Shown here: in pieces, positions 9,919 to 17,010 of the stretch
How the letters are laid out: each line of letters starts with the position of its first letter
Numbering within the stretch: the stretch's first letter is position 1
Assembly: GCA_052034625.1 (NCBI GenBank)
Contig: JBPOII010000005.1
Coordinates: 6,417 to 70,416, forward strand
From: Elusimicrobiota bacterium
GTDB lineage: Bacteria > Elusimicrobiota > Endomicrobiia > Endomicrobiales > Endomicrobiaceae
Direction: 5' to 3'
DNA length: 64,000 bases
The notes under the pieces: model-generated
The model's input: the letters and a program-made list of their open reading frames with translations, nothing else
Told to the model about the DNA's origin: nothing
The model's database searches: none
Made by a program: the position numbers and the translations under genes

Positions 9919-12900
9919 TTATGCGGCAGAAAGTATTGACTGTATTGTTTCAGAAGGATTAGAGTATCTTTCCGTCGCATCTTCAAACCTGTCTGTATCT
10001 GCAACAGGAAGCGGAATCTGTTCCATAATAATCCTTGATCCCCATGTCTTTGAAATAGCCTCCGCAACATCTTCAGAAAGCATTGTGATATTCATCAGTA
10101 CATTATCTTCATCTTTATTAACTCTGTCTTTAAGGAACACTACTTTTTCAAGCCACCTTGAATTGACTTCCTTTGAAAAGAGTTCAGTTGAATCCGTATG
10201 AATAAAAAGTTTTTTGTCAGGATGTTTTCTTGAAAACTCTTTAAGAGCAGCTATAAGAAGAACTTTTTTACTCTGATTATAAAAAGCATTTTGGAACTGT
10301 TTTTCAAGGTCAGAATCCATCACTATTTGAAGAAGATGTACACCCGTAGGCGTAACCGATTCATATACGGACACTTCTACCGGCTCGGTAAGACCTTTTA
10401 TGCCAAGAATAAACTTATCAGGGTTTATTTTACCATGGAATAGATCTTCATTAGTCACAATCTCAATATTATAAGTTTCAGCTTCATACCCGGCTAGGGA
10501 CTCAAGTTTTGAACGTTCACTAAGCATAGCTCCTTTCCCTTCGGAAAGATTAATAAATATAGAGTTGTCTATCCTGTAAATCTGTCTTTCAAGAAGTTTT
10601 TCTCTGGCATATTTTACCATCTGTTCCATAAACAAAGAAGGTTTTACAAGTTCTTTCTGTATATACTTTTTCTCACCTTTTTTTGGCCCCTCAAAACCCG
10701 CCCTTAATATTCCTAAAATAGAGCTTATCACTTTATAACTGCCTCTGCTTCCATATTTTGGAGACATATCATCGTCAATATTTACAATTATGGGCAAATT
10801 GTCAGGATCAAATATAACTTCTCCTATGCCTGCCTCTTCAAGTTTGCTTAAAGTATTATGTCCCGCATATATCACAGGTACTCCGAGTTTCTGAGCTATT
10901 ATACTAAAAGCGATTTTCAAGGCTTCCTCATCACTGACATTTGGATTTTTCCTTTTTCCTAAATTTATAACATCTTGTGAAATTTCCTGAGGTTTAATTG
11001 CGACTGTATTGTCAGCATAAATTGAATTGATCAATGTAAAAGCTTCTAAAATTTCAGAAAGAGGGGCATTATAATCATACAGTTTTACATCTACTGACAT
11101 TTTATATAAGCCTTCAAGTATTGAAGGTCCTGAATAATATTCTCCTTTATAGTACAGACCTTTCACTCTCTTGCCTGTAACCTCATCATGAGTATGCATT
11201 TTCCCATTTTTATCTACATATCCTATCGCTACATCACCATCTTCATCAATAGGTAAAATAGCATGCATATGGAGTCCTCCGTAAGAGTCAATAGTAAACA
11301 GGTTAAAGTTATTTTTATAAAACTCCATAAGTTCCACTATAAAGCTGTCTTCAAAATAATTTGAATAGGTTATGATCTGATTTCTTGCGTATTCTGCTTC
11401 TTTTTTTGCTGCTGCAGCGGCTCTCTGAGCTGCTCTGGCAGCTTCTTTTGCATCTCTTAAAATTCTTGATCTTACCTTCTGTTCTGATGTCATCAATTTT
11501 GATGCTTCAGACTGTAAACGTCGGGCTTCCTTATCTTTTTCATTGGCAATCTCTTCTTTCTTTCTGGCAATCTCTTCAAGCTCGGCTTTGCGTGCTCCAA
11601 GAAGCCCTTTGACCATATCACCCCAACCGGAGTGAAACACCCAGTCAAAGGCATACCATTCAGTACTTTCAAAATTTCTATACATTATAGAATCAACAAC
11701 AAGCCACGCCCAGTTTCCATTTTCCATTTCAGATTCAATTTTACTTTTTATTGAAGAAATAATTGTTGTCAGCATTTCGTCCATTTCTTTCCAATAAGCT
11801 TCATGTTCAGGGTATTTTTGCCTTAAAATTTCCATTTCGTTATGCTTATCTATCCACCAATTGAGCGACATTTTATTTACAGCACCAAGACCTTTAAAGA
11901 CAATTGTCTGGACATTATGTCCCAACATTGCTCTCCACCATTCGTAGAGAGCCTCATCTTCAACGATAACTTTATTTTGTGCCGTATAAGAATTAGGATA
12001 ATTTAAAATATCTATTCCGGTTTCCATATCAAGTTTGTCAATACCGTACATTTCCTGGAAAAGAGCGGCCGCTCTCATCTTTTCCGCATTCCAGATCTTT
12101 TCTTGTTCATTATCTGAATAGGCAACATATTCTTCAAATTTTTTTGCCCAGAATCCTTTTGTTTTGATGCCGGCAACTTCATAGTTTTTCATAATAGCTT
12201 CTCTTTCTCTGTTTGAAACTGCCGCATCAAGATATTGCTGTCTTACAGCAAGCATATCGGCCTCGGCTTTATGTTCAAGACGCAGCATAGAACTGACATT
12301 AATTACTCTTTCTGTTCCGCCAAGATTCAGTCTGACTTCATAATCATCGTCTATACCTTTATAATTATCATAGAAAGGAAGATGCACGCCTAAAATATTC
12401 ATCTGGGCATTATTATCATGATTTCCAATTATATATCTCGTCTTTTCAGACTCCATAAGAGCACGTATTAATTCAATAACCCTAAGAGGTCCAGGACCTC
12501 TGTCAATAAGGTCTCCAAGAATAAAAAGATTATCTATATCCGAATCATCAAGGGCTTTTTTTAACGTTTCCGGCGTCAATTTTTCACTTTGGTCTATATT
12601 GAGCATATCTTTCAATAAGAATTCAAATCTTCTATCAGCACCGTGTATGTCACTCATTACAACAAACTTCGGAAGTCTTACAGTTCCGCCGGTCGCCGCA
12701 CTTTTTATAATATTGGCCATATCTCTATACTCAAATGTCGGAATAGGAGATATCTTTTCTTCTTTTGTTCTATCATCCAATTCATTTATCGCATCAGGAT
12801 CTTTTTCAACTTTTTTCAGTGCATCAACTATCTCCTGTATAACATCTAGCATCCTTTCTATATCTGAATCGGAATAAAATGTGGTAAGTGTATCAGTTTT

Positions 12901-17010: not shown

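Follow-up and report, generated by a model that had tools for sequence, protein, structure and literature searches.

Giant proteins of Omnitrophota, the 'Archaeovorins' and related very long proteins, carry signal peptides or transmembrane helices together with peptidase and sugar-phosphate enzyme domains, and the extracellular location predicted for them is puzzling (West-Roberts et al. 2023, bioRxiv 10.1101/2023.11.21.568195; preprint 10.64898/2026.06.07.730766). Why Omnitrophota and their relatives fuse domains of central metabolism with hydrolases in giant modular proteins that bear export signals is a puzzle, and so is the place where these proteins act. Here we describe a gene for a protein of 2,363 amino acids (aa) in a 64,000-nucleotide stretch of an Elusimicrobiota bacterium of the Endomicrobiaceae (GenBank assembly GCA_052034625.1, contig JBPOII010000005.1, forward-strand positions 6,417 to 70,416; the whole stretch is called the window, and positions are counted from its first nucleotide). 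The locus extends the phenomenon to compact (2–4 thousand aa), tractable proteins of gut Endomicrobiia.

Judging from conserved residues and structure models, the protein consists of a predicted signal segment, a head module, a gluzincin-type module, a helical linker, an HD module, a metallophosphoesterase (MPE) with an insertion, an alpha/beta domain and a C-terminal ..ILSAA tail. A first reading made from the letters alone (hereafter the sequence-only reading) had seen here a signal-anchored mosaic of several hydrolase-type modules. This was largely right: three of the four predicted catalytic modules were upheld and the fourth, the head, is plausible. The best overall explanation, with the balance about even, is that this is a modular giant enzyme, exported and hydrolysing nucleotide-type phosphoesters.

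A single polypeptide with four predicted active sites

The listing of open reading frames (ORFs) confirmed the claim that one uninterrupted frame covers the gene. The frame (9919..17064) lies on the minus strand, which the sequence-only reading had not named; its first ATG, at 17010, gives a product of exactly 2,363 aa (MKNYNF...SILSAA). All motifs quoted earlier were located in the translation: YIQDMHCNPGVQ at aa 73-84, VSGGFHSS at aa 442-449, VGIVHELKHEF at aa 802-812, the HD motifs at aa 1123-1270 and the MPE motifs at aa 1454-2052. By our own estimate, a stop-free frame of 7.1 kb has a chance of ~1e-60, taking ~6% of random codons as stops at 35% GC. A protein identical to the product (P0001) occurs on 4 public contigs. 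Full-length homologues of 2,101-2,377 aa, one of them 69% identical and ten at 31-40% identity over the whole alignment, are collinear with it from the signal peptide through the last residue. P0012 (1,604 aa) is without the HExxH and HD modules only, its head being joined straight to the phosphoesterase. Finally, a genome scan that covered one genome per GTDB species and used the 12-member family alignment as query found 34 loci in independent metagenome-assembled genomes (MAGs) of Endomicrobiia and Elusimicrobiota, nearly all in Endomicrobium (termite gut), in Ruminimicrobiellum and its relatives (rumen) and in other Elusimicrobiota MAGs.

These data bear directly on the possibility that separate genes were joined by assembly or frameshift error, or that the motifs were matched by chance, a reading to which we give next to no likelihood. 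The collinear homologues come from independent samples and assemblers and, together with the identical protein on separate contigs and the 34 loci, rule out a chimera; all four motif sets are invariant among sequences 31-69% identical; and the AlphaFold2 (AF2) models are confident, with predicted local distance difference test (pLDDT) values of 77 and 83. Nothing was found in favour of an artefact, the link of the head to Ere/ChaN being the only statistically weak one. The single mosaic polypeptide is thus upheld by its collinear homologues, and its continuity by independent assemblies. The gene is real and conserved, and comes from Endomicrobiia (Elusimicrobiota) of termite-gut or rumen type.

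The calcineurin-type MPE that had been proposed stands firm. Pfam PF00149 matches with 39.3 bits (cut-off 21.5; E = 1.2e-9) and is above threshold in 12/12 family members, in which every metal-ligand motif is invariant (D1454/H1456, G1499-D1500, D1503-R1504-G1505, G1529-N1530-H1531-D1532, H1916 and G2050-H2051-N2052). PDB 4j6o matches at 3.4e-8 by sequence and with probability 1.0 in Foldseek. The module shares the DxH, GDxxDRG, GNHD, H and GHx motifs and the fold of the binuclear site with the Pnkp phosphatase domain (4J6O), PrpE and ApaH, which are also its relatives in NCBIfam. It departs from them in a helical insertion of ~350 aa, placed after motif III and before motif IV, and in sitting inside a giant protein, and it scores far under equivalog cut-offs (PrpE: 29 vs 340 bits). 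The insertion carries invariants of its own (W1621, N1699, W1719, H1793 and W1796). The same insert-bearing MPE is also found in an Omnitrophota MAG (L032, 1681-5031, plus strand), where a 1,116-aa protein combines it with a signal peptide of its own, ~440 unrelated N-terminal residues and a 'GGIDLNP...' C-terminal region. The alpha/beta region that follows the MPE in the giant protein (aa 2135-2335) had no Pfam or PDB match.

The HD domain was upheld as well. Its key residues are H1123, H1127, H1166-D1167, H1177, H1245, H1267-D1268 and D1270, and all of them except H1177 are listed as conserved throughout the 11 members in which the module is present. Pfam HD-CE (PF24391) and HD (PF01966) match 5/12 members (best 7e-5 and 2e-3), whereas the giant protein itself has no Pfam HD match at E <= 1. 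Foldseek returned the Vibrio cholerae dGTPase 7lwz (probability 0.5-0.72, ~385 columns) and PDE4B/PDE9A (probability 0.38-0.47), in both cases with E > 0.1. What unites the module with the Dgt-type dGTPase VC1979, class I PDEs and HD-CE is the predicted all-helical fold and the H...HD...H...HD...D ligand pattern; what sets it apart from known HD phosphohydrolases is that the matches are weak, with Pfam hits in relatives only, and that a ~50-aa variable insertion lies at aa 1195-1235.

The HExxH segment proved to be a genuine domain. Each of the 11 members with the module retains H806, E807, H810 and F824-E825, and in the AF2 model HExxH and E825 lie on consecutive helices (H764-784 and H789-814). 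Foldseek matches it to the catalytic domains of M1 aminopeptidases (probability 0.98-1.0, ~140-150 columns, root-mean-square deviation 4-5 Å, E = 0.19-0.6) and also lists an M61 peptidase and the minigluzincin selecase, while scans with the query and the family matched no Pfam peptidase family. Conserved residues and predicted fold together point to a gluzincin-type module and no chance motif. It differs from described members in the distance from the second His to the Glu, 15 residues vs ~19-20 in thermolysin and M1, and is without the N-terminal and C-terminal domains of M1.

A protease-type module among enzymes raises the possibility of a self-processing polyprotein, in which the gluzincin and/or the head would cleave the precursor at the variable linkers and free the HD and MPE enzymes; for the giants of Omnitrophota, cleavage after translation has been proposed by West-Roberts et al. 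Protease-type modules do lie between enzymes here, the linkers are variable and poorly structured, and P0014 (4,005 aa) has two HExxH copies far downstream (aa 2482-2648 and 3063-3200), interspersed with other cargo. However, most superfamily members have no HExxH module, P0012 is without it yet retains the MPE, and the linkers show no conserved cleavage motif, so that we consider self-processing very improbable. The heptad-rich stretches of the sequence-only reading are present as helical, K/E/A-rich, poorly conserved segments (aa 931-1050 and 1803-1876) that some homologues lack in part; the second consists, in model B, of helices H754-792 and H799-827. We read both as linkers or hairpins and not as coiled-coil domains with a function of their own.

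For the head, the proposed kinship with the ChaN/TIKI/Ere proteins is plausible, and we lean slightly towards it. The AF2 model, built on a 26-sequence alignment, has a six-strand alpha/beta core split by a ~270-aa helical lobe (pLDDT mostly 80-95), and the core strands end in conserved motifs. D76, H78, Q84, E106, E143, E158, R418, G444-G445 and H447 are invariant in these 26 sequences, which are only ~20-25% identical. In EreC, the catalytic residues E47, H50, E78, R261 and H289 lie on a two-lobed fold common to ChaN, HopBA1 and the toxin PMT (PMC7979712), and their order is mirrored by D76, H78, E106, R418 and H447 when mapped by motif position, not by superposition. The spacing from His to Glu is 28 residues in EreC and head alike, and that from Arg to His is 28 in EreC vs 29 in the head, which gives a common scheme of Asp/Glu-x(1-2)-His after strand 1, a Glu 28 residues later and an Arg ~28-29 residues before G-x-x-His. 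An alpha/beta major lobe with an inserted helical lobe is likewise seen in both, for the head as a predicted model and for EreC in PDB 6XCQ/6XCS. Foldseek lists EreC (6xcs_A, probability 0.54, TMt 0.24) and HopBA1 (5t09, probability 0.54) with E-values that are not significant.

Residue constellation, spacing and these weak fold matches speak for the assignment; sequence comparison gave it no significant support. Queries with the protein and the alignments gave no Pfam, NCBIfam or PDB sequence match for the head, searching PDB with a sequence profile of the head and the HExxH segment returned one chance-level match only, and Pfam ChaN matched faintly in 2/26 head sequences (E = 0.17). A link to TraB/TIKI was sought by comparing Escherichia coli YbaP with the head by hidden Markov model (HMM) and hhalign, both negative. 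Unlike Ere/ChaN proteins, the module always heads a giant protein, its helical lobe is much larger than that of EreC, and the extra invariants Q84, E143 and E158 are unaccounted for. Four independently conserved catalytic constellations are thus found in one polypeptide, and it is reasonable to assume that each of the four predicted active sites is probably functional.

A shared head and tail around variable cargo

It is true, as the sequence-only reading stated, that these modules are combined in no characterised protein, but the protein is no orphan, since it belongs to a huge superfamily. A head profile searched with HMMER against 1.84 billion representative proteins matched 9,417 clusters when the limit was E <= 1e-3 and 6,223 when it was E <= 1e-30, and scored E = 6.8e-158 on the giant ORF. 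Among the best 150 of the 9,417 clusters, the head begins almost always at residue ~35-70, and protein length is 2,377 aa at the median and 7,422 aa at most. The source names of members point to Elusimicrobia, including Ca. Liberimonas magnetica.

Only the head, at ~25% identity, is common to the distant homologues (1.4–4 thousand aa; Elusimicrobia and Omnitrophota), and their cargo is different. The cargo of P0023 is two PGMs plus one PGK (2.5e-140) and one PGI (3.5e-176); elsewhere it is PGM, adenylate kinase, UDPGP, an ARMT1-type phosphatase, FHA or PHP. In a sample of 13 proteins, PGM was present in 6, and transaldolase, PFK, ROK kinase, GT2/chitin synthase, polysaccharide deacetylase, nucleotidyltransferases and a protein kinase were also found. 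The cargo of the subfamily described here is protease, HD and metallophosphoesterase. Modules have also been shuffled within the family, as in the head–MPE fusion of P0012 and the duplicated HExxH of P0014.

The other conserved element is the extreme C-terminus. All 12 family members end in ..(I/M/L)L(S/A/T/E)AA, and of the 117 superfamily proteins that are 2,000 aa or longer, 101 (86%) close with [A/S/C][A/L/V/G/M]-COOH behind an amphipathic stretch, compared with ~5% expected by chance by our own estimate; among shorter proteins (<2,000 aa) the tail was found in 16 of 50, most of which are truncated. Four classes are seen, ..ΦLxAA, ..LGAG, ..RRxΦΦWS(L/V) and ..ALxSL, and the class co-varies with the head subtype, NYE/NFE heads going with ..SL/..SV and NP/HP heads with ..AA/..AG. 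The giant protein itself has both elements, a head after a hydrophobic segment and a ..SILSAA tail. Such tails resemble C-terminal recognition motifs of the ssrA/Tsp type.

As far as sequence comparison can tell, head and tail form a conserved chassis around interchangeable enzyme cargo, and this chassis defines an extensive superfamily of giants in Elusimicrobiota and Omnitrophota, 2–7 thousand aa long and hitherto undescribed. The head has a hydrolase-like constellation, is absent by sequence from Pfam, NCBIfam and PDB and yet occurs in ~9,400 clusters. Both ends offer handles for testing location and processing, and for annotators wishing to recognise the family.

We also conjecture, while thinking it unlikely, that head and tail are a cognate pair, the Ere/TIKI/TraB-like head, as a peptidase or esterase, recognising its own family's ..Φ-Φ-x-[A/S]-[A/L/V/G]-COOH tail; it may then cleave the tail, esterify it to some component of the envelope or join head to tail in an assembly. 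The idea stems from the conservation of both ends independently of the cargo, from the co-variation of tail and head, and from the unusual conservation of residues in the signal peptide. The co-variation, however, could be explained by phylogenetic inertia. If the conjecture is true, an unrecognised sorting, processing or assembly system would deploy thousands of giant enzyme fusions in Elusimicrobiota and Omnitrophota, whole stretches of glycolysis and gluconeogenesis among them.

Site of action

By inspection, the N-terminus consists of a K/R-rich n-region (MKNYNFRFTK), an h-region of 15 residues (VSLLVAVIFLFSSLM) and a c-region (PQFSFA|AK), and it is the sole hydrophobic segment of the protein. 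A Sec signal peptide of classical look, conserved in the family, is therefore a plausible prediction. F20 and L21 within the segment are invariant in the family, and distant superfamily members show a ..F(L)xSNΦxFA pattern in their signal-like segments; conservation of residues inside such a segment is unusual compared with ordinary Sec signal peptides. The conserved residues may reflect a recognition step dedicated to these proteins, or an anchor that is retained.

We infer location, substrates and the roles of head and tail as follows. Sec would translocate the giant protein, which would work in the cell envelope or extracellularly. There the HD and MPE modules would act in sequence on nucleotide-type phosphoesters, candidates being nucleoside polyphosphates, dinucleoside polyphosphates, cyclic or 2',3'-cyclic phosphates and nucleic-acid ends, and the role may be scavenging or host interaction, by analogy with periplasmic UshA/CpdB. 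Head and tail would serve targeting, anchoring or processing of the polypeptide. Export is supported by the nearest relatives of both phosphohydrolase modules, which act on nucleotides or nucleic-acid ends, and the same insert-bearing MPE stands behind an unrelated signal peptide in the 1,116-aa Omnitrophota protein. As a lead only, the best Pfam model for the HD module is HD-CE, whose sister, the calcineurin 'CE' (conflict-effector) family, targets nucleotides (PMC12871103). UshA is a periplasmic nucleotide hydrolase, and as an exported calcineurin-like enzyme (E. coli annotation) it offers a functional parallel. Four conserved active sites on an exported-looking polypeptide suggest an envelope machine for nucleotide and phosphoester salvage in reduced-genome organisms.

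Several observations weigh against this explanation. The substrates follow solely from distant relatives; none of the modules modelled had a Foldseek match under E < 1e-3; and profile searches gave no significant HMM link of the head to Ere, ChaN or TraB. More pointedly, relatives with the same head and signal carry PGK (at the E-value given above for P0023), PFK, ROK kinase, protein kinase and GT2/chitin synthase, and cargo that depends on ATP or nucleotide sugars makes little sense in the periplasm. A stand-alone PGI adjoins one relative, the PGM-carrying giant P0024. The internal hydrophobic segments of relatives are paired as hairpins, which would keep all domains on the same side as the head. 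The claim that the activities lie outside the cytoplasm is therefore left divided: the conserved signal-like N-terminus speaks for it, and the PGK and PFK cargo behind the same head and signal argues the opposite way.

The same observations favour a membrane-tethered cytoplasmic scaffold, with an uncleaved N-terminal anchor and the whole polypeptide facing the cytoplasm, a rival that we find doubtful but take seriously. The superfamily would tether enzymes of sugar-phosphate, glycogen and gluconeogenesis metabolism to the inner membrane; the MPE would be a sugar bisphosphatase resembling class-3 fructose bisphosphatases (FBPases), and the HD module a second phosphatase. Bona fide PGM, PGK, PGI, PFK, transaldolase, ROK kinase and GT2 domains in relatives fit this picture, as do a glycogen phosphorylase in a neighbouring giant, the stand-alone PGI and the hairpins, and the same doubt about localisation was raised by West-Roberts et al. 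On the other side, a positive n-region ahead of an A-x-A-like c-region is the topology classically associated with export, modules of the gluzincin and Ere/ChaN types belong more typically to proteins outside the cytoplasm, and the Omnitrophota protein shows the MPE behind an independent signal peptide.

The likeness to class-3 FBPases deserves separate mention, because a real match would point to sugar bisphosphates rather than nucleotides as substrate, and so it too counts against nucleotide hydrolysis. Compared by hhalign with 13 class-3 FBPases, the MPE gave a probability of 55.9% (E = 1.1e-4, 155 columns), and the family HMM aligns three collinear pieces of Bacillus subtilis Fbp, whose sequence is 100% identical to P0029. 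Both proteins belong to the calcineurin clan, have large insertions and share an alignable C-terminal half with the motifs H-x3-P-V/I-D-E-x-G ... GH-T/N-P ... ID-G/D-G/D-x-S-K-x-Y; such kinship would suit the sugar-phosphate theme of the superfamily cargo. However, the hhalign match covers the C-terminal half only and includes generic PPP motifs, and the insertion lies between motifs I and II in Fbp but between motifs III and IV in the giant protein. Pfam FBPase_2 (PF06874), proposed for checking in the sequence-only reading, gave no match at E <= 1 in the whole protein and none even at E <= 10 in six C-terminal halves. Membership of class 3 was dropped on this ground, and a partial resemblance retained.

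A translocated effector would reconcile the signal peptide with ATP-dependent cargo: the secreted giant would be delivered into the flagellate host or neighbouring microbes, its cargo would use host ATP and nucleotides, and the head would behave like the Ere/ChaN-fold domains of bacterial toxins and effectors. This fold is found in the type III effector HopBA1, itself among our Foldseek matches, and in the Pasteurella toxin PMT (PMC7979712); Omnitrophota giants have been discussed as prey-directed proteins; and the best HD model is a 'conflict effector' HD. We nevertheless judge delivery into other cells improbable, given that the conserved neighbourhood (DUF386, PorV-like, kinase, flavoprotein, OmpA-like, GH94) contains no secretion-system or immunity gene, that there is no translocation domain, that the family also occurs in free-living rumen and groundwater lineages, and that the PADLOC defence library gave no match. 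A defence-effector reading of the HD-CE lead was dropped after the PADLOC result, and defence-system membership is not supported.

Gene surroundings and comparison with the Omnitrophota giants

The features of the gene are collected in Table 1. The best sigma-70-like site overlaps an upstream in-frame TTG (17064) and a Shine-Dalgarno-like stretch precedes the ATG, which makes ATG 17010 the probable start. With its own promoter-like site, Shine-Dalgarno-like stretch and strong terminator past the stop, the gene reads as a self-contained, monocistronic unit. It is flanked by glnA (8360-9685) and a gene for an HI0933-like flavoprotein (17341-18582), and its GC content (~35%) is similar to that of the surrounding DNA. 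An Rfam scan found no match within the gene. The window is otherwise ordinary chromosomal context, with a class A RNase P RNA (110 bits; 40423-40763, minus strand) and three tRNA genes (Met, Val, Met) at 21916-21991 and 41555-41788.

Table 1. Features of the giant gene, its product and the second giant gene in the window (positions in the window; residues of the 2,363-aa product)
Feature	Residues	Positions	Strand	Basis
Complete coding sequence, 2,363 aa and stop codon		9919..17010	-	ORF listing; identical public protein P0001
Sigma-70-like promoter, TTGAAA-16-TATAAT		17053..17080	-	11/12 matches, top site in region
Shine-Dalgarno-like GGCGGTG, 6 nt upstream of ATG 17010		17016..17022	-	sequence inspection
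Putative Sec-type signal peptide or signal anchor	1-32	16915..17010	-	only hydrophobic segment; conserved in all homologues
Head (N) module	40-500	15511..16893	-	26-sequence alignment; AF2; Foldseek; superfamily profile
Small alpha/beta region and disordered linkers	501-699	14914..15510	-	low conservation; pLDDT 30-88
Gluzincin-like HExxH module	700-930	14221..14913	-	conserved residues; pLDDT 85-93; Foldseek
K/E-rich variable helical linker	931-1050	13861..14220	-	alignment occupancy 0.41-0.69, identity 0.15-0.28
HD phosphohydrolase module	1051-1400	12811..13860	-	Pfam in relatives; conserved residues; Foldseek
Calcineurin-like binuclear MPE	1445-2130	10621..12678	-	Pfam PF00149; PDB 4j6o; motifs
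Helical hairpin, coiled-coil-like, A/K/E-rich, inside MPE module	1803-1876	11383..11604	-	occupancy 0.35; some homologues only
C-terminal alpha/beta region	2135-2335	10006..10608	-	weakly conserved, identity 0.19-0.38; partial model pLDDT 55-80
Extreme C-terminal tail, PSETIQSILSAA-COOH	2352-2363	9922..9957	-	L2360, A2362, A2363 invariant
Intrinsic terminator, 16-bp stem then T-run, past stop codon		9857..9891	-	sequence scan
Second giant, same superfamily, ATG 5889, at least 1,963 aa, cut by window edge		1..5889	-	head HMM E = 6e-53 to 3e-63

The second giant gene was missing from the ORF listing because the window edge cuts it. Its product starts with a signal-like segment, followed by a head at aa 52-495 (E = 6e-53); compared along the full length with P0018-P0021, it shows 28% identity. 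It had no Pfam match, shows two or three internal transmembrane-like hydrophobic stretches (aa ~1174-1227 and 1589-1610) and lies in an unusually AT-rich region (27-30% GC).

Neighbourhoods were compared between the relatives' loci L001, L002 and L003/L004 and window positions 17341-21165 and 8360-9685. In Endomicrobiia relatives the giant gene is preceded by genes for DUF386, a ~520-aa protein with a faint match to PorV (outer membrane), an AAA_17 kinase and the HI0933 flavoprotein, and is followed by genes for an OmpA-like protein and a GH94 phosphorylase and by rml genes; the present window instead has glnA, PhoH/PIN, PHP and then the second giant. The idea of a conserved partner gene was rejected, as the neighbourhoods of six relatives are syntenic within Endomicrobiia and have nothing in common with those of distant giants. 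P0023, which has the tail ..RILTAA, lies directly upstream of tig-clpP-clpX-lon; this is a usual housekeeping operon and we treat the proximity as coincidence. P0024 lies just downstream of its stand-alone PGI gene. P0026 is flanked by two more giant genes, for proteins of 4,972 aa (HD and glycogen phosphorylase) and 1,306 aa, so giants can occur in tandem.

Taken together, these results place the protein beside the Omnitrophota giants. It shares with them an N-terminal signal or transmembrane segment and a modular mix of peptidase, HD, phosphatase and PGM/PGI/FBPase-type domains, and its head superfamily includes Omnitrophota proteins with the same types of cargo. The papers on those giants, however, describe proteins of >10,000 aa with N-terminal regions 'generally lacking identifiable domains', and an Ere/ChaN/TIKI-like head goes unmentioned in both preprints, as does any conserved tail at the C-terminus; recognising the head-plus-tail chassis that defines thousands of giants is what the present analysis adds. 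The present protein, with 2,363 aa, no internal transmembrane helices and a cargo of protease, HD and MPE, comes from Endomicrobiia, whereas Archaeovorins exceed 10 thousand aa, have many transmembrane helices and belong to Omnitrophota. Membership of the Archaeovorins was accordingly rejected in favour of a relation in kind: the giant protein is a compact Endomicrobiia variant of the Omnitrophota-type giant modular enzymes.

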